Shown: positions 2 through 53,459 of the stretch, in pieces | Numbering within the stretch: the stretch's first letter is position 1 | Layout of the letters: the number at the start of each line of letters is the position of its first letter | Assembly: GCA_031406795.1 (NCBI GenBank) | Contig: JANOHV010000023.1 | Span: 1 to 53,612, forward strand | Direction of reading: 5' to 3' | DNA: 53,612 bases | From: Candidatus Rokuibacteriota bacterium | Lineage (GTDB): Bacteria; JAUVQV01; DATDCY01 | Program-made: the position numbers and the translations under genes | Notes under the pieces: generated by a model | The model's input: the letters and a program-made list of their open reading frames with translations, nothing else | Told to the model about the DNA's origin: nothing | The model's database searches: none

Positions 2-586
2 CTCGCCGCGCTCGCCTGTCTCGGACTCGGGGTTTTCCCGCCGCTGGTCATCGACTGGATGGACGCGGTGACGGAGCAGCTGGTCGGCATGAAGATCGGT
101 TCGCCCGTCGCCGGCCTCGGCTGGCTCTGGCTCACGCCGATGGCTGCGCAGCGCGCTTCGTACTCGGGGGGGATCGTCTTTTTCGGGTTGCTGGTCAGCA
201 TCCCTGCGGTCTACCTGCTGCTGCACATCCGGCCCGGCTCCGTGCACCGTGTGCCGATCTGGGACTGCGGGTTCGAGAAACTCACGCCGCGCATGCAATA
301 CACCGGCACCGCCTTCGCGATGCCGCTGCGGCGGATCTTCGGGTTCCTGTTCGGCATCAAGGAGCGCATCCGGCCGCTCGCCCATCCCGGGCAGTCGGCC
401 TACCCCAGCCGGATCGGCTACTCGCTGCGGGTGCGCGACCGCGCCTGGAGCTGGTTCTACGCGCCGATCGCGCTGGCCTGCTTCGCCCTCGCGCGCCAGG
501 TCGGCCGGCTGCAGCAGGGGCGGATCCAGTCGTACCTGATCTATTCGTTCGTGACGATCATCGTGCTGCTGGTGTTCCTGCGATGA
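2..586 (+). CDS. hyfB: Hydrogenase-4 component B-like antiporter subunit (HyfB/HycC), C-terminal part, 5'-truncated by window edge
   Basis: Frame open from base 2; motifs WDCGF...RMQYT..F..P and C-terminal LQQGRIQSYLIY are typical of HyfB; precedes hyfC-like gene with ATGA overlap. Confidence 0.85.
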   Translation, partial: LAALACLGLGVFPPLVIDWMDAVTEQLVGMKIGSPVAGLGWLWLTPMAAQRASYSGGIVFFGLLVSIPAVYLLLHIRPGSVHRVPIWDCGFEKLTPRMQYTGTAFAMPLRRIFGFLFGIKERIRPLAHPGQSAYPSRIGYSLRVRDRAWSWFYAPIALACFALARQVGRLQQGRIQSYLIYSFVTIIVLLVFLR

Positions 587-1527
587 ACGCGTATCCCTTC
601 TTCCTCGAACTGCTCCAGTTGCTGGCGCTCGCGGCGATCGCGCCGCTGTTCGCCGGCTGGGTCAAGATGCTCAAGTGCTGGTCGCAGTCGCGCACGAGCC
701 CGGGGCTGCTCCAGCCGGTGCGGGATCTACGCAAGCTCTTCGGCAAAGACGTCCTGCTCGCCGAAAACGCCTCCTGGATCTTCCGCTTCACGCCGTACCT
801 GGTCTTCAGCACGGCCCTGCTCGCGGGGGGGATCATCCCGATCCTCTCCGTCGATCTGCCGCTGGCGCGCACCGCCGACGTCATCGTCTTCGTCGCGCTG
901 TTCGCGATCGCCCGCTTCTTCACGGCGCTCGCGGGGATGGACGTCGGCACCGCCTTCGGCGGCATGGGCTCGAGCCGGGAGATGACGATCGCCTCGCTGG
1001 CGGAGCCGGCGATGCTGATGGCGATCTTCACGATCTCGCTCGGCAGCGCCTCGACCTCGCTGGCGCAGATCGTCAGCAGCATCCAGTCCGGACAGCTGCT
1101 GCTGCGCCCGTCGTTCGCGTTCGCCATCCTCGCCTTCGTGCTCATCGCGCTGGCGGAGACCGGCAGAATCCCGGTCGACAACCCCGCGACGCACCTCGAA
1201 CTGACGATGATCCACGAGGCGATGATCCTGGAGTACTCCGGCCGGCACCTGGCCCTGATCGAGTGGGCCGGCATGATGAAGCTCTCGCTCTTCTGCTACC
1301 TCGGCATCGCCGCCTTCTTCCCCTGGGGCATCGCCGCTTCCCGCGACCTGCGGGCGCTGGCGCTGGCCTTCGGCGCCCTGGTGGCCAAACTCGCCGTGAT
1401 CGGCGCCGGCATCGTGCTGATCGAGACCGGGCTGGCCAAGATGCGGATCTTCCGGCTGACCGAATTCCTCGGCGCCGCCTTCCTGATGGCGACGCTGGGC
1501 ATGCTCTCCTTCTTCATCCTGGAGTGA
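583..1527 (+). CDS. hyfC: HyfC/HycD (NuoH-like) membrane subunit
   Basis: PGLLQPVRDLRKLFGK, FGGMGSSRE, AETGRIPVDNPATHLELTMIHEAMILEYSGR motifs. Confidence 0.92.
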   Translation: MNAYPFFLELLQLLALAAIAPLFAGWVKMLKCWSQSRTSPGLLQPVRDLRKLFGKDVLLAENASWIFRFTPYLVFSTALLAGGIIPILSVDLPLARTADVIVFVALFAIARFFTALAGMDVGTAFGGMGSSREMTIASLAEPAMLMAIFTISLGSASTSLAQIVSSIQSGQLLLRPSFAFAILAFVLIALAETGRIPVDNPATHLELTMIHEAMILEYSGRHLALIEWAGMMKLSLFCYLGIAAFFPWGIAASRDLRALALAFGALVAKLAVIGAGIVLIETGLAKMRIFRLTEFLGAAFLMATLGMLSFFILE

Positions 1528-1529
1528 CG

Positions 1530-2195
1530 ATGAGCCTCGAACTGGCGGCCCGGATCAACAGCTTCCTCGCGGCGCTCGTGCTGCTGACCGCCTTCGCGAT
1601 GCTCGCGCAGCGGCGGTTGAACGGCCTGATCCACCTCTTCGCCTGGCAGGGGCTGCTGCTCTCGGTCAACACCGCGATCGTCGGTTTCGTCGCCTCACGT
1701 CACCACCTCTACATCTCCTCGCTCCTGACGCTCGGGCTCAAGGTCGTGCTGCTGCCGTACATCCTGCAGATGCTGATCCGCCGCCTGAAGATCCACAAGG
1801 AGATCGAGGTCGTCGTGAACGTCCCGATGACCATGATGATCGGCATCGCCCTCGTCGTCCTCTCCTACCACCTGACCGCGCCGATCATGGAGCTCTCCTC
1901 GATGGTCACCCGCTCGACGCTGGCCGTGGCCCTGGCGACCGTGCTGATCGGCCTGCTGATGATGATCACCCGGCGGCACGCGGTGACGCAGATCATCGGC
2001 TTTTTGGCCCTGGAGAACGGCCTGTTCTTCGCGGCCACGAGCGCGACGTACGGGATGCCGCTGGTCGTGGAACTCGGCGTCGCGCTCGACGTGCTGATCG
2101 CGGCCTTCATCTTCGGGATCTTCTTCTTTCACATCAGCGCGACGTTCGAGAGCCTGGACGTCGAACAGATGGCGCATCTGAAGGAAAACGACTGA
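1530..2195 (+). CDS. hyfE: HyfE membrane subunit
   Basis: ATG at 1530 inside ORF 675-2195; hydrophobic protein with QIIGFLALENG and PLVVELGVALDV motifs. Confidence 0.9.
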   Translation: MSLELAARINSFLAALVLLTAFAMLAQRRLNGLIHLFAWQGLLLSVNTAIVGFVASRHHLYISSLLTLGLKVVLLPYILQMLIRRLKIHKEIEVVVNVPMTMMIGIALVVLSYHLTAPIMELSSMVTRSTLAVALATVLIGLLMMITRRHAVTQIIGFLALENGLFFAATSATYGMPLVVELGVALDVLIAAFIFGIFFFHISATFESLDVEQMAHLKEND

Positions 2196-3655
2196 TGAGC
2201 GGCGCGCCCCTGCTGCTGCCCCTGCTGCTGGTCCCGCTCGCCGCCGCGGTCGCGCTGGCCATGGTCGGCGACCGCAGGTTCGCGCCCGAAATCAACATTT
2301 TCGGCTCGGCGGCGACCTTCGCCGCCGGCCTGGGTCTGGCGTTCCAGGTCTACGAGCGGGGCTCCTTCATGGCCGGGGGGGAGTTTTTCTTCGTCGACGC
2401 GTTCAACATCTACCTCGCGGTGCTGACCGCGTTCGTGTCGATGACGACGGCGATCTTCAGCCGGCGCTACATGCGGCGCGAGCGCGAGCACGGCCGGGTC
2501 GGCCACGGCGGCATGCGCTTCTACCACGCGATGTTCCAGCTCTTCATCTTCGCGATGCTGCTCTGCCTGCTGACCAACAACGTCGGCATCCTCTGGATCG
2601 CGATGGAGCTCGCCACCCTCTCGACCGTGCTGCTCGTCTCGCTGTACCGCACCCCGACCGCGATCGAGGCGGCGTGGAAGTACTTCATTCTCTGCGGTGT
2701 CGGCATCGCGCAGGCGCTCTTCGGCACCGTGCTGCTCTACTTCGCGGCCGAGAAGGTGCTCGGCGAGGGGGGCGACGCGCTGCTCTGGACCAACCTCAGC
2801 CGCGTCAGCGGCAGCCTGGAGCCGACGGTGCTCTCGCTCGCCTTCGTCTTTCTGATGGTCGGCTACGGCACGAAGGTCGGACTCGTGCCGTTGCACAACT
2901 GGCTGCCGGACGCTCACAGCGAGGGGCCGACCCCGATCTCCGCCGTGCTCTCCGGGCTGCTGCTGAACGTCGCGCTCTACGCCCTCGTGCGCTGCAAGGC
3001 GCTCGTCGACGGCGCCACGCGGACCCACCACGCCGGCGATATCATGATGGGCTTCGGCCTGCTCTCGATACTCGTTTCGGCGTTTTCCCTGTTGCGGCAG
3101 AAGGACATCAAGCGGATGTTCTCTTACTCTTCAATCGAGCACATGGGCATCGCGACTTTCGCCTTCGGCCTCGGCGGCCCGATCGCGACTTTCGGAGCGC
3201 TGCTGCACATGCTGATGCACAGTCTCGCCAAATCCTCGATCTTCTTCACCGTCGGCCACGCCTCGCAGATGCACGGCACCCAGGAGATGTCGCGCATCCG
3301 CGGCCTGTTCAAGGGCAACCCGCTCGTCGGCTGGGGTTTCATGCTCGGGGTCATGGCGATCATCGGGCTTCCCCCGTTCGGGGTCTTCACGAGCGAGTTT
3401 TTGATCCTCACGGCCACCATCAACGACGCCCCCGGGTGGGCGCCCTTTCTGCTGCTGGGCCTGGCGGTGGCCTTCGCGGCACTGCTCAGACGAGTGCAGC
3501 CGATGGTCTCCGGCGCGCCACCCCCCTGGCAGCAGCCGCTGCAGGCGGCGCACGTGCCGGTGATCCTGCATCTGGTTCTCGTGCTGCTGGTCGGCCTCTC
3601 CCTGCCGGCCTTCCTGAACGACTGGTTCGTCACCGCGGCGAGGTTGCTGAAATGA
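2195..3655 (+). CDS. hyfF: HyfF antiporter-like subunit
   Basis: EAAWKYFILC, GYGTKVGLVPLHNWLPDAHSEGPTPISA, KRMFSYSSIEHMG motifs. Confidence 0.93.
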   Translation: MSGAPLLLPLLLVPLAAAVALAMVGDRRFAPEINIFGSAATFAAGLGLAFQVYERGSFMAGGEFFFVDAFNIYLAVLTAFVSMTTAIFSRRYMRREREHGRVGHGGMRFYHAMFQLFIFAMLLCLLTNNVGILWIAMELATLSTVLLVSLYRTPTAIEAAWKYFILCGVGIAQALFGTVLLYFAAEKVLGEGGDALLWTNLSRVSGSLEPTVLSLAFVFLMVGYGTKVGLVPLHNWLPDAHSEGPTPISAVLSGLLLNVALYALVRCKALVDGATRTHHAGDIMMGFGLLSILVSAFSLLRQKDIKRMFSYSSIEHMGIATFAFGLGGPIATFGALLHMLMHSLAKSSIFFTVGHASQMHGTQEMSRIRGLFKGNPLVGWGFMLGVMAIIGLPPFGVFTSEFLILTATINDAPGWAPFLLLGLAVAFAALLRRVQPMVSGAPPPWQQPLQAAHVPVILHLVLVLLVGLSLPAFLNDWFVTAARLLK

Positions 3656-5232
3656 GCCGTCTTTTCCGGCTGCTCAAGGCGGCTTTCGGCGACTAGGTCC
3701 GCGCCGACGCGCGGCAGTTCCCCGCCGCCGTCGTCGCCTGCGTGCTGCCGCGCGAGCGTTTTGCCGACGCCGCGCGGGAGTTGAAGAAGGCGCACGCGCT
3801 GCTGGTCGCGGAGTGGACGACCGACGAGACCGCCTTCGGGCGCGGCTACGGCGTCTACGCCTGCTTTCGCTGGGCGAAGGACTGCGTGATCGTCAAGTCG
3901 GGGCTGCCCGCGGACGACCCGTCGTTCCCGACGCTGACGACGAGCTACGCCCCGGCCTTCCGCTTCGAGCGGCAGATGCACAGCCTGATGGGCGTGGTGC
4001 CCGCGGGACACCCCGACCTGCGGCCGTGGATCGCCTTCGAGGACTGGCCGGCCGGCGCGTTTCCGCTGCGCAAGTCGTTCGACGCCGCGCAGCCGCTGAC
4101 CCGTGGCAGCGGCGACTACGCCTGGATCAGGGCCGAAGGGGAGGGCGTCTACGAGATTCCCGTCGGCCCCGTGCACGCGGGGATCATCGAGCCGGGGCAT
4201 TTTCGCTTCCAGGCGGTCGGCGAGGACGTCGTGAACCTCGAGGAGCGTCTCGGCTACGTCCACAAGGGGATCGAGAAGCGATTCGAGTCCCTGCCGTGGG
4301 GGCAGGGGCACCGGCTGGCCGGCCGGGTCTCGGGGGACACGACGGTCGCTCACGCGCTGGGTTACTGCCTGGCGCTCGAAGCTATGAGCGGCTGCGCGGT
4401 GCCGGAGCGGGCGCACTGGATCCGCGCGCTGCTGCTGGAGCGCGAGCGGATCGCGAACCACTGCGGGGACCTGGGCGCGATCGCCAACGACGCCGCGTTC
4501 GCCTTTCTCTGGTATCAGCTGGCGCGCCTCAAGGAGACGATGCTGCGAACCAACCGGGCGCTCTTCGGTCACCGGTTCATGATGGAGAGCGTCGTGCCGG
4601 GAGGGGTGGCGGGCGACCTGACGGGGGAAGGGCGGACAACCATCGAGAGCGAGCTCGCGGGCCTGCTCGTGGAATTCGAGCGCCTGGTCACCATCTACGA
4701 CGACAACGCCTCGCTCGAGGACCGGGTGCGCCAAACCGGCGTGCTCTCCCCGAAGCAGGCCCTCGACCTGTGCGTCGTCGGCGTCGTGGCCCGGGCGAGC
4801 GGCATCAACCACGACGCGCGCGTTTTCCACCCGTTCCCGCCCTACGACCGTCCGGAGGAGATCGAGCTTGATGTCCCGGTGCTGGTGAGCGGCGACGTGC
4901 ACGCCCGCGCCTGGGTCCGGGTGCTCGAGGTCCGGGAATCCGTGCGGCTGTTGCGCTACATCCTGGCGAATCTCCCCGACGGCCCGGTTCTGGCGCCGCT
5001 CCCCGCGCCGCCGCCGGGGGTCGCCGGATTCGCCGCGGTCGAGGGCTGGCGCGGCGAGATCGTCTACTGGCTGCAGTCGGGCCCCGGCGGTGAGGTCAAC
5101 CGCTGCATGGTGCGCGATCCCTCCGCGCTGAACTGGGTCGCTCTGGAGCAGGCGGTGCCGGGAAACATCGTCCCGGATTTCCCACTCTGCAACAAGAGTT
5201 TCAACCAGTCCTACTCGGGGCATGACCTTTGA
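3652..5232 (+). CDS. hyfG: HyfG/HycE-like large subunit (NuoC+D-like) lacking NiFe ligands; in-frame TAG at codon 15 (3694-3696), alternative GTG start at 3742
   Basis: GPVHAGIIEPGHFRF, LGYVHKGIEKRFE, VEGWRG, DFPLCNKSFN..YSGHDL motifs; ATG 3652 overlaps the hyfF stop and is in frame with ORF 3742-5232 across one TAG. Confidence 0.85.
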
Positions 5233-6487: not shown

Positions 6488-7119
6488 GCTACCGGGTCAA
6501 GGAGCTGTTCTACTCCCTGCAGGGCGAGGGGGTGCGGGCCGGCCGGGCTGCGGTCTTCTGCCGCTTCGCCGGCTGCAACCTCTGGTCCGGGCGGGAGGCG
6601 GACCGCGCGCAAGCCCGCTGCCGCGTCTGCGACACCGACTTCGTCGGGACCGACGGCGCCGGCGGCGGCGTCTACCGTACGGCCGGCGAGCTGGCGGCAG
6701 CGGCGCGCCGGTTGTGGCCCGACGCGCCCGGTGCGCGCCCGTACGTCGTCTGCACGGGCGGAGAGCCGCTGCTGCAGATGGACGCTCCACTCGTCGCGGC
6801 GCTGCACGATGCCGGTTTCGAGATCGGCATCGAGACGAACGGCACCCTCGCACCGCCTCCCGGGATCGACTGGGTCTGCGTCAGTCCCAAGGCTGGCACC
6901 GAGCTCGTCGCGCGCCGGGGAGACGAGCTCAAGCTCCTCTATCCGCAGCAGGGGGTGGATCCCGCGCATTTTCTGAACCTGGCCTTCGAGCACTTCTCGC
7001 TGCAGCCGGTGGACGGGCCGGACCGCGCAGACGCGACGCGGCAGGCGCTGGGCTATTGCCTCGCCAACCCCCGTTGGCGGCTGAGCCTGCAACTCCACAA
7101 GATCCTGGACATCCGGTAG
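6484..7119 (+). CDS. queE: 7-carboxy-7-deazaguanine synthase (radical SAM, CX14CX2C type)
   Basis: [51 protein letters not shown]. Confidence 0.95.
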
Positions 7120-24065: not shown

Positions 24066-24855
24066 CAGCTTTCCCCCGGCTCGAGCGCTCGGGGCGATCG
24101 TGGCCCTCGTCGCGCTCGGGCTGGCTGGTTGTTCGTCGCACCGGCCGGGGTCAGCGGGCCCGGCTCCGACCCCGGGCGAGGTGTATCAGTCGCTTCTCGG
24201 ACACAACCGGGGCCTGACTGCGGTGCGTGCGGCCGCGGAGGCGCGCCTCTCGTACGCGGGCCGGGAAGTATCGCTGCCGGGCGCGCTGCTGCTCGACGGC
24301 TTCGGGGGATTCCGCCTCGACCTGCTCGATCCGCTCGACCGGCCGCTCGCGATGCTGTTCGCCGAAGAGGGGCGGATCGTCAACTACCGGCCCGGCCCGG
24401 CTCTGGCGGCGTCGCTCGGCGTGTTTCCCGACGGTTGCCGCGGGGTCGACCCGGCGGATTGGGTGTCGGCACTGCTGGCCGCCCGCCTTGCCCCGGTCGC
24501 CGGAGAGAGCCTTGCCATTCGCAGGTTCTGGGGAGGCGGGCGCGTTCTTGAAGTTCATCGCGGCGGTCGGGTGCACCAGAGCATCCGCTACGGTAATGAG
24601 GGCGGGCAGTTGCTGCCCCGGCACATTACCTGGTATTGCGACGAGGACGCGGTGCTCCAGTTGCGGGTGCTCGAATGGGTCAAGGGGTCCTCCTGGAGCC
24701 TGCCTTCGCGCTTTGATCTGCAGTTTCCCAAGGCCGGGCTCGCCATCAGGCTGGAACTCAGCGAGATCGAGGGGAACCCACCGCCGACGCCCCAGCCGCT
24801 GCGCCCGCCCCTCGGTTCCGACATCAGGTGGACGAGCTGGAATCTCCCGCAGTGA
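24043..24855 (+). CDS. Lipoprotein, LolB-like/DUF4292-like by position
   Basis: Lipobox LAGC; beta-rich; occupies the lolB position between TPR and ispE. Confidence 0.6.
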   Translation: MPSRRRPSSFPPARALGAIVALVALGLAGCSSHRPGSAGPAPTPGEVYQSLLGHNRGLTAVRAAAEARLSYAGREVSLPGALLLDGFGGFRLDLLDPLDRPLAMLFAEEGRIVNYRPGPALAASLGVFPDGCRGVDPADWVSALLAARLAPVAGESLAIRRFWGGGRVLEVHRGGRVHQSIRYGNEGGQLLPRHITWYCDEDAVLQLRVLEWVKGSSWSLPSRFDLQFPKAGLAIRLELSEIEGNPPPTPQPLRPPLGSDIRWTSWNLPQ

Positions 24856-25805
24856 CCGCGGGAGTCGCATCCGGCGCGGAAGTCCGCATACTCGCGCCGG
24901 CGAAGATCAACCTCGGCCTCGCGGTTCTCGGGCCCCGCGCCGACGGTTACCACGAGTTGCGCACCATCTTCCAGGCCGTCTCGCTGTGCGACCGCATCGC
25001 GCTGCGGCGAGCGCGCGGCGGGGTGCGGCTGAACTGCCCGGCGCTGCACGGACTCGGCGAGAACAACCTTGCCCACCGCGCCGCGCGGCTGTTTCTCGAA
25101 AAAACGGGTCTGCCCGGCGGGGTCAGCATCGATCTGGAGAAACGCATTCCCACGGGGGGCGGGCTCGGCGGGGGCAGCAGCGATGCCGCGGCCGTTCTGC
25201 TCGGATGCTGCCGTCTCTTCGGGATTCGTCCCGATCCGGCGACCCTCCTCGGCTGGGCGGCAGCGCTCGGCTCCGATGTCCCTTTCTTCCTTGAGGGCGG
25301 TTCCGCAATCGGGAGCGGCCGGGGTGAGATTCTCGAGCGTCTGGCGCCCTTTCCCGGCACCGTGGTGGCGCTTCTCCAGCTGGCGGGCCCTGGTTTGTCA
25401 ACGGCCGCCGTCTTCCGGAAACTCCGGGCGCCGGCGCACCGCCCCGCCGTTCATGCCGCGGATCGGACCCGAGGGAGATTGACAGCGGGCACCCGGAAAC
25501 TTACCATCCTCCTCGCGTGTTGGCAGGGGGGAGACCTGCGGCGCCTCGCGAGGCTGCTCTTCAACGATCTCGAGACGCCGGCATTCGCCTTGGCCCCCGA
25601 ACTCGCTGACGTGAAAGAGAGGCTGACCGCCGCCGGGGCGGAAGGGGCGCTCCTGAGCGGCAGCGGGTCGAGCGTCTTCGGGTTGTTCGGCGGCGATCGC
25701 GCAGCCGAACGGGCCCGCGGACGGCTGCGGGGAAGCATCCCGGGGCGGCTCGTCAAGGTGCACTTCCTTCCGGCGCGTCGCCGATGGGGCGTCGTCAAGC
25801 GGTAA
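24852..25805 (+). CDS. ispE: 4-diphosphocytidyl-2-C-methyl-D-erythritol kinase
   Basis: APAKINL.L, R.DGYHEL.T, KRIP.GGGLGGGSSDAA, LGSDVPFF, LSGSGS. Confidence 0.95.
   Translation: MTAGVASGAEVRILAPAKINLGLAVLGPRADGYHELRTIFQAVSLCDRIALRRARGGVRLNCPALHGLGENNLAHRAARLFLEKTGLPGGVSIDLEKRIPTGGGLGGGSSDAAAVLLGCCRLFGIRPDPATLLGWAAALGSDVPFFLEGGSAIGSGRGEILERLAPFPGTVVALLQLAGPGLSTAAVFRKLRAPAHRPAVHAADRTRGRLTAGTRKLTILLACWQGGDLRRLARLLFNDLETPAFALAPELADVKERLTAAGAEGALLSGSGSSVFGLFGGDRAAERARGRLRGSIPGRLVKVHFLPARRRWGVVKR
25479..25507 (+). promoter_or_regulatory. Putative internal sigma70 promoter within ispE (for tRNA-Gln)
   Basis: TTGACA-17 nt-TACCAT. Confidence 0.55.
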
Positions 25806-25859
25806 GACACGGGTCTTTGGATCCCGCATTCGGAGGTTCGAATCCTCCCGCCCCAGCCA
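25785..25859 (+). tRNA. tRNA-Gln (anticodon TTG)
   Basis: Cloverleaf: acceptor TGGGGCG/CGCCCCA, anticodon loop CTTTGGA, T arm GGAGG-TTCGAAT-CCTCC, encoded CCA. Confidence 0.96.
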
Positions 25860-25959
25860 TCGCAGGCATCTGAGCCGATTTACTTCTTGACAGGCGTGTC
25901 CCGAAGTGGTGTTGTGTCTATAGGTTGACGCAAATCCATCGGGAAGGAGGTGAATCTGC

Positions 25960-26187
25960 ATGGAACGCACGGATCTGAAGAATGTTCTGGCTGGTTTCGG
26001 TCTCGCGGCACTTCTCGCGGGCGTCGCAGTGGTCGGGTGCTCGCAGCCGCAGAAGAGCTCGTGAACGGGCAAGAAAACCGGTGCCGGTGGCACTGGAACC
26101 CAGCAGCAGGCCCCAGCCCCCAGTTCCTGAAGCGGAACCAAAGGCGCCGGTGGCGCCGGAGGCTCCTGATCGGGCACCAAGAAGTAA
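25960..26187 (+). CDS. sbtA: SbtA-type (selenobiotic family) RiPP precursor with three selenocysteines: MERTDLKNVLAGFGLAALLAGVAVVGCSQPQKSSUTGKKTGAGGTGTQQQAPAPSSUSGTKGAGGAGGSUSGTKK
   Basis: SD AAGGAGG at 25944-25950, ATG 25960, in-frame TGA at 26062, 26128 and 26167, TAA 26185-26187; leader resembles the SbtA family (DLK..LAG.G.A.L.AG); adjacent to an SbtM-like rSAM gene. Confidence 0.88.
26078..26096 (+). promoter_or_regulatory. SECIS-like hairpin 1
   Basis: CCGGTGCC-GGT-GGCACTGG; loop begins 21 nt after TGA 26062-26064. Confidence 0.75.
26143..26157 (+). promoter_or_regulatory. SECIS-like hairpin 2
   Basis: GGCGCC-GGT-GGCGCC; loop begins 18 nt after TGA 26128-26130. Confidence 0.72.
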
Positions 26188-26206
26188 CCAGTGCGGTCTG
26201 CACTGG
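26188..26206 (+). promoter_or_regulatory. SECIS-like hairpin 3 (in 3' UTR)
   Basis: CCAGTGC-GGTCT-GCACTGG; loop begins 25 nt after TGA 26167-26169; resembles the E. coli fdhF SECIS apex GC-AGGUCU-GC. Confidence 0.78.
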
Positions 26207-26247
26207 AAGATGAGAGAAACCGACCCGGAAGCACGGAATAGCCGGGC

Positions 26248-26311
26248 ACTCCGAACTGGCGGAACCGGGGGCGCGCGAGCGTCCTCGAGGATGTCGGTTC
26301 GGAGTTTTTTT
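26248..26311 (+). terminator. Intrinsic terminator-like long hairpin after sbtA
   Basis: ACTCCGAACTGGC/GTCGGTTCGGAGT outer stem, inner CGGGGGCGC-GCGA-GCGTCCTCG hairpin, followed by a T run. Confidence 0.7.
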
Positions 26312-26317
26312 CTGAAG

Positions 26318-26346
26318 TTGACACCAGAGTCCGTCCGGACTAGGGT
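26318..26346 (+). promoter_or_regulatory. Putative sigma70 promoter for sbtM
   Basis: TTGACA-17 nt-TAGGGT, ending 9 nt before ATG 26356. Confidence 0.5.
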
Positions 26347-26355
26347 TCTCGCGTC

Positions 26356-27834
26356 ATGACTTCCCGGAATTCGTCCCTCCCTCCCGACTGCGCGGCCGAT
26401 CTCGCGCGCGTGCGGGAGGCCGCAGAAGCGGTGGCCGCGGCGCAGACGCCGGCCCGCTGGGCGGAAGGCGACCGGCACGAGGTCAATCCGACGCTGCAGG
26501 CGCTCGCTCTGGCCTGGCGGAATCTCGGAGCCTACGCCGGACCCGACGCGCTCGCCGAAAGCGCCGCCCCGCCGGCTCCGGGCCAGGAGACGCTGCTGAT
26601 CTGGCGCTCCCCCGGGAGCGGGCGCGTGGTCGCCCGCGCGGCCGGCGCAGACGATCTGCTCGCTCTCAAGCTCGTGGTGGAGGGCATCGACCTGGACGCG
26701 GCCGCGGCCGCCGGGGCGCTCTCCCGGGGGGTCATCGAGAGCGTGCTCGCCCGCGCGGCCGACGGCGGAGTGCTCCTGGCGCCGCGCCCGCTCATCCGTC
26801 GCGGGGAGGATTTCCCCCGGGGCGAGCTGGTCGACGAGTCCTTCTTCAGCGTCACCGGGTTCACCCTGCAGTGGCACCTGACGCAAGCCTGCGATCTGCA
26901 CTGCCGCCACTGCTATGACCGCAGCGCGCGTTCGGCCGTCCCGTTGGCGGCCGCCCTGGGCGTACTCGACGACCTGCGGGACTTCTGCCGGCAGAGACGG
27001 GTGAGCGGGTCCGTCTCGCTGAGCGGCGGCAACCCGCTGCTGCACCCGGACTTCACCGAGATCTACCGGGCCGCCGCCGCGCGCGATTTCGGCCTGTGCA
27101 TCCTCGGCAACCCGGCGCCGCGCGCCCGGATCGAGGAGTTGATCGAAATCCGCCGGCCCGGTTTCTACCAGGTCAGTCTCGAAGGCCTGCCGGAGCACAA
27201 CGACTGGGTGCGCGGGGCCGGACACTTCGAGCGGACCCTGAAATTCCTGCGGGAGCTCAGGGAGCTGGAGGTCTCGAGCATGGTCATGCTCACGCTGACC
27301 GAAAGCAACATCGATCAGGTGCTGCCCCTGACGCGTCGGTTGCGCGGGCTCGTCGACGATTTTCACTTCAACCGCCTGGCCATGGTCGGGGAGGGTGCGA
27401 ACCTGCGCCTCCCCACCCGCGAACGCTATGCCCGGTTTCTCGAGGAATACCTCGCGGCGGCGGAGCGCGACCCGGCGCTGGGCCTCAAGGACAACATGAT
27501 CAACATCCTGCGGCGCGAGCGCGGCGAGCCCCCCTTCGGCGGCTGCACCGGCTTCGGGTGCGGCGCGGCATTCAATTTCCTCGCCGTGCTGCCCGACGGC
27601 GAGGCGCACGCCTGCCGGAAGTTCCCTTCGCCGGTCGGCAACGTGGTTCGTGAGGGCATCGCCGCGGTCTACGATGGCGCGGCCGCGCAGGCCTACCGCG
27701 GCGGCTGCGCCGCCTGCCGCGACTGCGCGATCCGCCCGGTCTGCGGCGGCTGCCTCGCCGTCGCGCACGGCTTCGGCCTCGATCCGCTGCGCGAGCGCGA
27801 CCCGCTCTGTTTTCGCGACCGTGACGCTCGTTGA
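26356..27834 (+). CDS. sbtM: SbtM-type thio(seleno)oxazole RiPP maturase, radical SAM/SPASM
   Basis: LQWHLTQACDLHCRHCYDR (CX3CX2C), SGGNPLLHP, GGCTGFGCGAAFNF...ACRKF, CAACRDC...VCGGC SPASM; N-terminal extension with LLALKLVVEG. Confidence 0.88.
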   Translation: MTSRNSSLPPDCAADLARVREAAEAVAAAQTPARWAEGDRHEVNPTLQALALAWRNLGAYAGPDALAESAAPPAPGQETLLIWRSPGSGRVVARAAGADDLLALKLVVEGIDLDAAAAAGALSRGVIESVLARAADGGVLLAPRPLIRRGEDFPRGELVDESFFSVTGFTLQWHLTQACDLHCRHCYDRSARSAVPLAAALGVLDDLRDFCRQRRVSGSVSLSGGNPLLHPDFTEIYRAAAARDFGLCILGNPAPRARIEELIEIRRPGFYQVSLEGLPEHNDWVRGAGHFERTLKFLRELRELEVSSMVMLTLTESNIDQVLPLTRRLRGLVDDFHFNRLAMVGEGANLRLPTRERYARFLEEYLAAAERDPALGLKDNMINILRRERGEPPFGGCTGFGCGAAFNFLAVLPDGEAHACRKFPSPVGNVVREGIAAVYDGAAAQAYRGGCAACRDCAIRPVCGGCLAVAHGFGLDPLRERDPLCFRDRDAR

Positions 27835-46376: not shown

Positions 46377-47363
46377 ATGCGCTACCGCCTCGCGATCGAG
46401 TACCAGGGAACTCGCTACCACGGGTGGCAGGGGCAGCAGAACGCCCGCACGGTACAGGGGGAACTGCTGCGGGCCGCGCGCGAGCTGTTCGGCGTCGCGG
46501 TCGACCTCCAGGGGGCCGGGCGCACCGACGCCGGCGTGCACGCCCTGGGTCAGGTCGCCCACCTCGAGACCCCGCAGGCGCTCGCCGGGGATCGGCTGGT
46601 CTACGGGCTCAACGATCTGCTGCCGCAGGATATCAACATCCTTGCCGCCCAGCCCGTCGACGAGCGCTTTCACGCCCGCCACCACGCCGTGGGGCGCTCG
46701 TATCTCTACCAGATTTCTCGCCGACGCACCGCATTCGGCAAACCCTTTGTCTGGTGGATCAAGGACAGCCTCGACATCGAGGCCATGCGCCGGGCAGCCA
46801 CGGGGCTCCCGGGCATGCGGGATTTCGCCGGTTTCACCGACAAACGGGTCGAGAAGGACACCTCGACGATGGTCCTGGTGCAGCAGGCGGTTCTCGTCGA
46901 AGCCGGGGATCTCATCCTGGTACGGCTGCGGGCGTCGCATTTTCTCTGGAAGATGGTCCGGCGTGTCGTCGGCTGTCTCGCGGGCGTCGGGCGCGGGGAG
47001 ATCAGCGTCAGGGAGTTCGAGGGTCTTTTCGCCGGCCCTTCGCCGTACCCGGCCAAGGTCACGGCACCCCCCTCGGGCCTGTTCCTGGAGGAAGTGATCT
47101 ACGCGCTCGAGGAGTTCCGCCGGCCGCTGGAGCCCGTGTTGGGGGTTTCGCACGCCCAGGGCGCCGTCTCCGCGCCCACCTCGGCGATCGGGGAGAGAAA
47201 CGACCGCTTGCGGGAGAAGCCCCGAGCCGCGCTCGATCGAGTCGGGGGAGATCGGCAGCACCACGTCCCCGCGGCGCAGGCGGTGCCGGACAATGCGGTG
47301 ACGGCCAGGCCGGCCCGGAAGGGGTGGAGAACGAAAAAGGGATCAGGGCGGTCGTCACGGTAG
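46377..47363 (+). CDS. truA: tRNA pseudouridine(38-40) synthase
   Basis: EYQGT.YHGWQ, GAGRTDAGVHALGQVAH, FHAR, FLWKMVR, TAPPSGLFL; low-complexity C-terminal tail. Confidence 0.94.
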   Translation: MRYRLAIEYQGTRYHGWQGQQNARTVQGELLRAARELFGVAVDLQGAGRTDAGVHALGQVAHLETPQALAGDRLVYGLNDLLPQDINILAAQPVDERFHARHHAVGRSYLYQISRRRTAFGKPFVWWIKDSLDIEAMRRAATGLPGMRDFAGFTDKRVEKDTSTMVLVQQAVLVEAGDLILVRLRASHFLWKMVRRVVGCLAGVGRGEISVREFEGLFAGPSPYPAKVTAPPSGLFLEEVIYALEEFRRPLEPVLGVSHAQGAVSAPTSAIGERNDRLREKPRAALDRVGGDRQHHVPAAQAVPDNAVTARPARKGWRTKKGSGRSSR

Positions 47364-52472: not shown

Positions 52473-53459
52473 TTGCGTATCATGGGGGGGTGGGGCAGGG
52501 GGCGGTCCGCGGTTCGCATGCTGCTCGGCATGTTCCTCCTCCCGTGTTGCCTCGCGTGCACCGATCGCGGGGAGGGCACGCCCGTTGATCTCTCCCGGAG
52601 GGAACGTGTCGGGTACGCGATCCATGATCCCGCCGGTCCGCCCCTGCGCTTCGCCGTCGGCGCGATGCTGATACCCGAGGCGGGCAACGCCCTCTACCGC
52701 GCCTTGCTCGAGGAAGTCGAGAGCCGCCTCGGGCGTCCGATCAAGCTCGTCGACCGGAGCAGCTACGCGGCGATCAACCGTTCGCTCAAGGAGGGGACGA
52801 TCGACGCCGCGTTCGTCTGCAGCGGACCCTACGTCGACGGCAAGCGGGAATTCGGCCTGCGGTTGCTCGCAGCGCCCGTCGCGTACGGGCGCACGACGTA
52901 CCAGGCCTACGTGATCGTCCGCAAGGAGAGCCCCGTGCAGCGCTTCGAGGACTTGCGGGGAAAGAGCTTCGCGTTCACCGACCCGGATTCCAACACCGGC
53001 CACCTCGTACCGGCAAACTGGCTTGCGAGCCGGGGTGAAACACCGGGGAGCTTCTTCTCGCGCGTGGTCTTCAGCGGGTCTCACGACGCCTCGATCGCGG
53101 CGGTGGGCGGCAAACTCGTCGATGCGGCCTCGGTGGACAGCCTGATCTGGGAGTACGCGCGGCGCGTCAAATCCGAGTATGCCGGGAAGACCCGCATCGT
53201 CTGGGTTTCGCCGGCTTACGGTATCCCCCCCGTCGTCGTCCGGCCGGGGCTCGACCCCGAAATCGTCAAGCGCCTCCAGGCGATCTTTCTCGCGTTCGAC
53301 GCCGACGAAAAGGGCCGGTCCATCCTCGGCAAGATGATGATCGACCGCTTCGTCGAGGCCCGCGACGAGGACTACGACTCCATTCGCGTCATGCAGGAGG
53401 CAGTGGCGCGAGGCCCCGACGACCCGCCCGACGGCGCCGCGGCTGCCGGGCGTCCATGA
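52473..53459 (+). CDS. PhnD/PtxB-like substrate-binding protein (start uncertain)
   Basis: DAAFVCSGPY, FAFTDPDSNTG, SHD.SI.AV, D..YDSIR. Confidence 0.82.
   Translation: MRIMGGWGRGRSAVRMLLGMFLLPCCLACTDRGEGTPVDLSRRERVGYAIHDPAGPPLRFAVGAMLIPEAGNALYRALLEEVESRLGRPIKLVDRSSYAAINRSLKEGTIDAAFVCSGPYVDGKREFGLRLLAAPVAYGRTTYQAYVIVRKESPVQRFEDLRGKSFAFTDPDSNTGHLVPANWLASRGETPGSFFSRVVFSGSHDASIAAVGGKLVDAASVDSLIWEYARRVKSEYAGKTRIVWVSPAYGIPPVVVRPGLDPEIVKRLQAIFLAFDADEKGRSILGKMMIDRFVEARDEDYDSIRVMQEAVARGPDDPPDGAAAAGRP

Follow-up and report, generated by a model that had tools for sequence, protein, structure and literature searches.

The sbtA-sbtM locus and its surroundings

The window (the whole 53,612-nt stretch of DNA that was analysed) carried two adjoining genes on the same strand, sbtA and sbtM, with sbtM starting 169 nt downstream of sbtA (Table 1). 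Judged by its sequence, the locus is a further example of a known RiPP system, the SbtA/SbtM thio(seleno)oxazole selenopeptides. With TGA translated as selenocysteine (Sec, U), sbtA encoded a 75-residue peptide in which three Sec residues fell within 36 codons. Residues 1-26 of this product matched NCBIfam TIGR04081 ('SbtA family thio(seleno)oxazole RiPP natural product precursor') with 35.2 bits against a cutoff of 30.5, and the gene beside it matched TIGR04082 ('thio(seleno)oxazole modification radical SAM maturase SbtM'). Membership of the precursor in the SbtA family was also reflected in its three Sec contexts, SSUTG, SSUSG and GSUSG, which were Gly/Ser-rich variants present in homologues too, and the tail USGTKK was identical to that of one homologous locus (L032). 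In a standard list of open reading frames, the sbtA frame appeared only as a 34-residue ORF ended by the TGA at 26062; during genome annotation, gene callers will cut such genes short at the first TGA.

Table 1. Features of the sbtA-sbtM locus, with positions numbered from the first letter of the window
Feature	Position	Strand	Description and basis
Shine-Dalgarno-like AAGGAGGTGA	25944..25953	+	GGAGG core ends 9 nt before the sbtA ATG; read directly
sbtA, precursor peptide gene	25960..26187	+	ATG at 25960, stop TAA at 26185-26187; 75 aa with TGA read as Sec (U35, U57, U70); translation with TGA = Sec; TIGR04081 match
UGA-1 (Sec35)	26062..26064	+	Context KSS-U-TGKK; sequence, translation
UGA-2 (Sec57)	26128..26130	+	Context PSS-U-SGTK; sequence, translation
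UGA-3 (Sec70)	26167..26169	+	Context GGS-U-SGTKK-stop; sequence, translation; tail U[SG]G.KK-stop recurs in homologues
SECIS-like hairpin 1	26078..26096	+	CCGGTGCC-GGT-GGCACTGG; coding, translated T-G-A-G-G-T-G; 8 bp, one of them G.U, with GGU as loop (alternatively 7 bp around loop region CGGUG); -12.4 kcal/mol; 25.0 bits, E 7e-4
SECIS-like hairpin 2	26143..26157	+	GGCGCC-GGT-GGCGCC; coding, translated G-A-G-G-A; 6 bp, GGU loop; -10.4 kcal/mol; 21.7 bits
SECIS-like hairpin 3	26188..26206	+	CCAGTGC-GGTCT-GCACTGG; 3'UTR; 7 bp, loop GGUCU; -11.0 kcal/mol; 22.7 bits
Terminator-like hairpin between sbtA and sbtM	26248..26311	+	Long GC-rich hairpin (26248-26305) into seven U (26305-26311); -46.9 kcal/mol, z -5.62, a stability reached by none of 200 shuffles
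sbtM, radical SAM/SPASM maturase, 492 aa	26356..27834	+	TIGR04082, 660.7 bits against a cutoff of 350; Pfam Radical_SAM and SPASM

By eye, the SbtA leader (residues 1-27, 25960-26040) had a charged N terminus, a hydrophobic stretch and the residues VVGC, with Cys27 at 26038-26040, so placed that it resembles a lipoprotein signal peptide; many SbtA homologues had L-x-[ST]-G-C at the VVGC position. The long hairpin between the two genes looks like an intrinsic terminator or attenuator, which would yield more precursor than maturase transcript. A simple terminator scan missed it because the loop limit of the scan was 8 nt, and a simple promoter scan found no promoter. Upstream of sbtA were ispE and a tRNA-Gln gene, where the predicted ispE ORF (24828 to 25805) overlapped the start of the tRNA-Gln (25785-25859) by 21 nt. 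The remainder of the window, which had a GC content of 67.9% overall, was ordinary chromosome and included hydrogenase-4-like subunits, queC/queE, asd, gspD/gspM, pyrG, kdsA/D/C, lptC/A/B, rpoN, hpf, rapZ, ptsH/I and pilQ. The left end (59-5232) held the genes for hydrogenase-4 or formate-hydrogenlyase-like membrane subunits and the right end (52473-53459) a PhnD-like binding protein, for which a 'putative selenate ABC transporter' model stayed below its cutoff (98.7 bits against 250); neither the hydrogenase-4-like genes nor the PhnD-like protein is evidence for selenium use.

Hairpins downstream of the three UGA codons

The first-pass annotation of this DNA had proposed that each UGA in sbtA is followed by a SECIS-like hairpin of its own, two of them inside coding sequence and the third beyond the stop codon. 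When the sequence was reread, the letters and coordinates of all three hairpins were exactly as first described, the distances from TGA to the first loop base were again 21, 18 and 25 nt (hairpins 1, 2 and 3), and hairpin 3 began at the base directly after the TAA. Measured to the 5-nt loop region, the spacing was 20, 17 and 25 nt.

Folding had been suggested as a check on these hairpins, and all three proved to be the minimum-free-energy (MFE) structures both alone and within a 54-nt context. Folded alone, their z scores against shuffles of their own letters were -3.07, -2.77 and -3.34, and in the 54-nt context they were no more stable than shuffles (z of -0.36, -0.21 and -1.28). Given the 68% GC background, the stability of the hairpins alone was not beyond chance, and since stability is uninformative in such sequence, we undertook a comparison with homologues. 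Rfam at gathering score gave a tRNA match only, with no SECIS or other family at the hairpins, and at E values up to 10 over 25900-26360 it returned just sub-threshold, unrelated families and no SECIS.

A bSECIS model described in a 2026 review allows a loop of 3-9 nt, a stem of 4-16 bp, a G at one of the two leading loop positions, a spacing of 16-37 nt and an MFE of at most -7.5 kcal/mol (PMC13188914). The window hairpins had loops of 3, 3 and 5 nt and stems of 8, 6 and 7 bp, their loop regions (CGGUG, CGGUG and GGUCU) fitted N1-G-[G/U]-N-N2, all three spacings lay inside the 16-37 nt range, and their folding energies (Table 1) were below the threshold. Hairpins 1 and 3 (26076-26098 and 26186-26208) shared identical flanks and an identical 3' arm (AACC ... 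GCACTGGAA), with one copy in coding sequence and the other in the 3'UTR, which suggests duplication of a cassette across the boundary between coding and non-coding sequence.

Conservation of the hairpins among SbtA homologues

A search of genome contigs for SbtM gave 80 loci, mostly from Thermodesulfobacteriota and Nitrospirota MAGs with approximately 50-60% identity, together with one Rokubacteria MAG at 77%. With a regular expression for the leader (TGA read as U), an SbtA ORF was identified upstream of sbtM in 52 of these loci and in the window, and together these ORFs held 140 in-frame TGAs, some of which are read-through past a probable true stop. As a strict family hairpin we counted any GC-N5-GC core that extended to at least 5 bp and whose 5-nt loop region began 12-40 nt downstream of the codon in question. 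Such a hairpin followed 108 of the 140 in-frame TGAs in sbtA, compared with 10 of 101 Cys codons in sbtA and 82 of 5,904 any-frame TGAs elsewhere in the same loci. The proposal of one hairpin per UGA holds in the window, and across the family it is borne out at those 108 sites with a sharply defined spacing: the distance from UGA to loop region had its main peak at 20 nt (51 sites) and a second one at 17 nt (19), followed by 21 nt (11), 16 nt (8), 18 nt (5) and a few others. Strict hairpins occurred at a density of 6.2 per kb within sbtA versus 0.47 per kb outside, and the second and third loop bases were GG or GU in 111 of 129 cases inside sbtA versus 22 of 162 outside. The strict hairpin was absent after 32 of the 140 in-frame TGAs; inspected by eye, many of these TGAs were read-through past a probable true stop or preceded hairpin variants that contained a mismatch, had 4 nt in the loop or carried a GUAC core. 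Eight loci had Cys-type SbtA homologues beside SbtM, in which [GS]SCG-type sites were repeated and the hairpin motif was missing, and one further locus (L009) was mixed, with Cys sites lacking the hairpin and Sec sites followed by it.

One hundred hairpins at distinct positions (87 distinct sequences) aligned without gaps, with invariant columns G8, C9, G11, G15 and C16. The family consensus was N-R-Y-G-C / N-G-K-N-N / G-C-R-Y-N, comprising a 6-bp stem and a 5-nt loop region in which the second base was G in all 100 hairpins and the third was G or U. RNAalifold, unaided, predicted the 6-bp stem and 5-nt loop region. Covariation across homologues, which the first-pass annotation had named as a test of its proposal, was clear: the score was 0.450, compared with 0.180 in column shuffles (none of 500 reached the observed value) and at most 0.183 when pairing partners were slid. 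Since pairing at the five inner pairs of the alignment (A1) had been a condition of selection, their percentage paired is circular; pair 4-20 played no part in that selection and was formed in 76 of the 87 rows, with five pair types.

A covariance model (R2) was built from 97 homologue hairpins with the window excluded. In a search of 57 kb on both strands, the three window hairpins were its top three matches (25.0, 22.7 and 21.7 bits), and the next-best match reached 15.8 bits with a 10-nt insertion in the loop. The window hairpins thus exceed chance by their match to the family consensus, not by their stability. Other matches of R2 in the window (6804-6835, 47156-47180 and others, all at 15.8 bits or less and with loop insertions) were taken as chance. 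Applied to the 28 loci that had not been used for the model, R2 gave 23 matches at E values up to 1, of which 22 were on the sbtM strand, and each of these 22 followed, at a distance of 16-23 nt, an in-frame UGA in an SbtA-like ORF overlooked by the leader regular expression. Three loci had sbtA downstream of sbtM, not upstream. In the closest SbtM relative among the 80 loci (L001, the Rokubacteria MAG at 77% identity), neither the regular expression nor the model found an sbtA within 3 kb on either side.

These matches bear on the possibility that the first TGA of the window gene is a true stop, so that the product has 34 residues and the downstream hairpins are 3'UTR stability or attenuation elements, or terminators for the minus strand. 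TGA was the commonest stop codon in the window, ending 15 of 27 family-supported genes, which favours such a view and also means that any recoding of UGA must be local; in addition, the upstream Lys codons read as T-runs on the minus strand, and for that reason the simple scan scored each of the three hairpins as terminator-like there. We nevertheless consider it extremely improbable that translation ends at the first TGA, since three TGAs and a TAA share one frame, in-frame conservation of the residues after each TGA extends to distant homologues (as U-[SG]-G-x-K and, at the tail, as U[SG]G.KK-stop), the distance between UGA and loop is fixed at 17 or 20 nt within coding sequence, and 22 of the 23 matches in held-out loci were on the sbtM strand. 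A role as minus-strand terminators was rejected as there was no minus-strand gene converging on the hairpins, sbtM and ispE both being on the plus strand.

Inside coding sequence, the hairpins coincide with a recurring GAGG peptide motif that the first-pass annotation had interpreted as the translated SECIS stem. A motif of the form [GSD]A[GV][GS][TAV] started 3-8 residues after 73 of 140 U residues versus none of 101 C residues, and it was found in none of seven Cys-type SbtA homologues still beside SbtM. For a test at the codon level we used 68 distinct instances of [GSDNTA]A[GV][GS][TAVS], picked by their amino acids alone and hence free of selection for pairing. In 65 of the 68 instances, the synonymous third base of codon 1, which was only ever U or C, formed a pair with the base that opens codon 5 (U-A in 40, C-G in 23 and U-G in 2). 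The opening base of codon 1 and the synonymous third base of codon 5 likewise paired in 65 of 68. Thr occurred with GGU or AGU and Ala with GGC or AGC. Coupling of this kind points to a constraint on the RNA rather than on the protein, as the interpretation of the motif as a translated hairpin had implied. Furthermore, 25 of the 100 distinct-position hairpins lay wholly past the stop codon with the same consensus, following peptide tails such as UGGKK, USGKK, USS and US. The non-coding third hairpin of the window, originally put forward as independent evidence for recoding, therefore has counterparts throughout the family.

The opposite direction of cause would be that the hairpins are a by-product of a Gly/Ala-rich repeat, GAGG[TA], kept for the sake of the peptide (for example for recognition by SbtM) and have no function as RNA. 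Hairpins 1 and 2 are indeed coding and translate to the recurring motif, GC-rich Gly and Ala codons readily become palindromic, and the folding energies in context were unexceptional. However, an origin in the peptide accounts neither for synonymous bases that follow their pairing partners, nor for the absence of the motif after Cys codons and in Cys-type homologues that keep SbtM, nor for 25 copies of the same consensus in untranslated 3'UTRs, hairpin 3 included. These results largely refute it, and we regard it as highly implausible. The GAGG-type motif after Sec is best read as imposed by RNA structure, and it is a well-known principle that a SECIS within an ORF constrains the protein sequence (PMC10778597). 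More tentatively, and with somewhat less than even confidence, we postulate that UGA, spacer and hairpin may form a recoding cassette that is complete in itself and can be duplicated, its GAGG[TA] core being, on this view, a passenger of the RNA structure and not a determinant of peptide maturation or activity. When RiPP substrates are designed, one should not presume that the GAGG-type motif acts as a recognition element.

Selenocysteine decoding and comparison with known systems

We consider it very likely that the locus is an sbtA-sbtM RiPP pair whose 75-residue precursor contains three UGAs decoded as Sec, each with its own bacterial SECIS hairpin. The identities of the genes, the hairpins, their conservation and covariation across the family, their restriction to UGA rather than Cys codons, and the non-coding copies are all shown by the present analysis. 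SelB binding, Sec insertion and the maturation chemistry in the host organism are inferred by analogy. As in E. coli fdhF, SelB-GTP-Sec-tRNASec would bind the apical loop of the hairpin, and with a UGA in the ribosomal A site the hairpin would be positioned at the mRNA entrance, allowing Sec-tRNASec to be delivered in competition with release factor. The ribosome would then melt the hairpin and translate cassettes 1 and 2 as G-A-G-G-T/A, and it is through this translation of hairpins 1 and 2 that the RNA would impose the peptide motif. As the last Sec is just five codons before the stop, its hairpin falls in the 3'UTR. Subsequently, SbtM would convert Sec (or Cys) to seleno(thio)oxazoles; formation of thio(seleno)oxazoles by SbtM has been reported in vitro for another family member (PMC9204691, PMC11002830).

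Read-through of the UGAs might also take place without Sec, for instance by near-cognate insertion of Cys or Trp stimulated by the hairpin and without SelB. Consistent with this, selA, selB, selD and tRNA-Sec were not found in the 53.6-kb window (ARAGORN identified tRNA-Gln only, and NCBIfam scans covered 49 ORFs), Cys-type SbtA homologues exist, and SbtM is reported to take Cys substrates in vitro (PMC9204691). Against it, the invariant loop G is followed by G or U where the bSECIS model wants it and the spacing lies within 16-37 nt, features that fit SelB-type elements and not generic read-through stimulators, and SbtA is curated as a selenoprotein family (NCBIfam; table in PMC13188914). Insertion of another amino acid is thus very unlikely, if slightly less so than the two explanations weighed above. 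Since each hairpin agrees with the bSECIS model in every structural respect and also resembles the fdhF element, the SelB route to Sec insertion is the best-supported mechanism.

The apex of the fdhF element, given by the first-pass annotation as GC-AGGUCU-GC, was confirmed in the E. coli K-12 record, where it is situated 17 nt after the UGA. Further features of the fdhF SECIS are a bulged U and a long lower stem, of which the UGA is part. Like it, the window hairpins are short, lie just 3' of the UGA and have G-G-U in the apical loop, and the apex of hairpin 3, GC-GGUCU-GC, can be set beside that of fdhF base by base. The 17-nt distance from UGA to loop in fdhF is also the spacing of hairpin 2 and of 19 family sites. 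Unlike fdhF, which has a 6-nt loop, SbtA hairpins have a 5-nt loop region on perfect stems of 6-8 bp and are mostly 20 nt from the UGA; R2 gave no match to the E. coli fdhF SECIS at E values up to 1.

Reviews place bacterial SECIS elements in coding regions, or often within the ORF (the latter in PMC10778597). An engineered bacterial SECIS located within the 3'UTR works in E. coli for recombinant thioredoxin reductase, where the element is untranslated and Sec is near the C terminus (PMC10778597). Hairpin 3 of the window has the same layout, after the stop codon and with Sec near the C terminus. Unlike the engineered element, the layout in SbtA is natural and recurs in 25 of 100 family hairpins; among the matches listed in our literature search, there was no report of a natural bacterial SECIS in a 3'UTR.

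For the SbtA/SbtM system itself, a SECIS just downstream of the UGA/stop codon in an SbtM-associated peptide is already in print (PMC9204691, PMC11002830). The window locus is similar in that its leader matches SbtA and the adjoining radical SAM/SPASM gene matches SbtM, both above cutoffs, and in that its UGAs are in a context of small residues with a SECIS-like hairpin after them. The table of the 2026 review lists a 'selenobacteriocin' selenoprotein family with two Sec and the motif SGUG (PMC13188914). In contrast to the two Sec of SbtA in that table, the sbtA of the window has three Sec codons (PMC13188914), and in place of the quoted SGUG or GGUG its contexts are SSU[ST]G or GSUSG. Bandarian's perspective describes the SbtA/SbtM pair as limited to Geobacter and Desulfobacteria strains (PMC9204691), whereas the window host is GC-rich (67.9%) and the nearest relative of its SbtM among the 80 loci is from a Rokubacteria MAG. 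What is new here is the three Sec residues, the SSU[ST]G contexts and the GC-rich host outside Geobacter and Desulfobacteria; with this locus, the range of the SbtA/SbtM selenopeptides comes to include a GC-rich, Rokubacteria-like genome. What is known of Sec decoding in bacteria is unchanged by these results. The approximately 100 SbtA hairpins provide an unusually clean natural data set for the minimal rules of a bacterial SECIS, namely a 6-bp stem, an invariant loop G and a spacing of 17 or 20 nt.

Two further arrangements were observed among the homologues. In 11 loci, paired in-frame UGAs 3-7 codons apart were followed by a single hairpin, at a distance of approximately 17-21 nt from the near UGA and approximately 26-41 nt from the far one; in these homologues, one SECIS may serve two Sec codons. 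In another set of 12 loci, the last Sec UGA was followed 2-5 codons later by a second TGA, with no more than 7-13 nt from there to the loop. This second TGA seems to be where translation really ends, because reading on in frame turns the hairpin into unrelated sequence, and the same codon would then be read in two ways within a few codons. If the cassette interpretation is true, with one hairpin apparently serving two UGAs 3-7 codons apart and a TGA 7-13 nt before the loop acting as a true stop, the SbtA family would be a natural ruler for the SelB decoding window.
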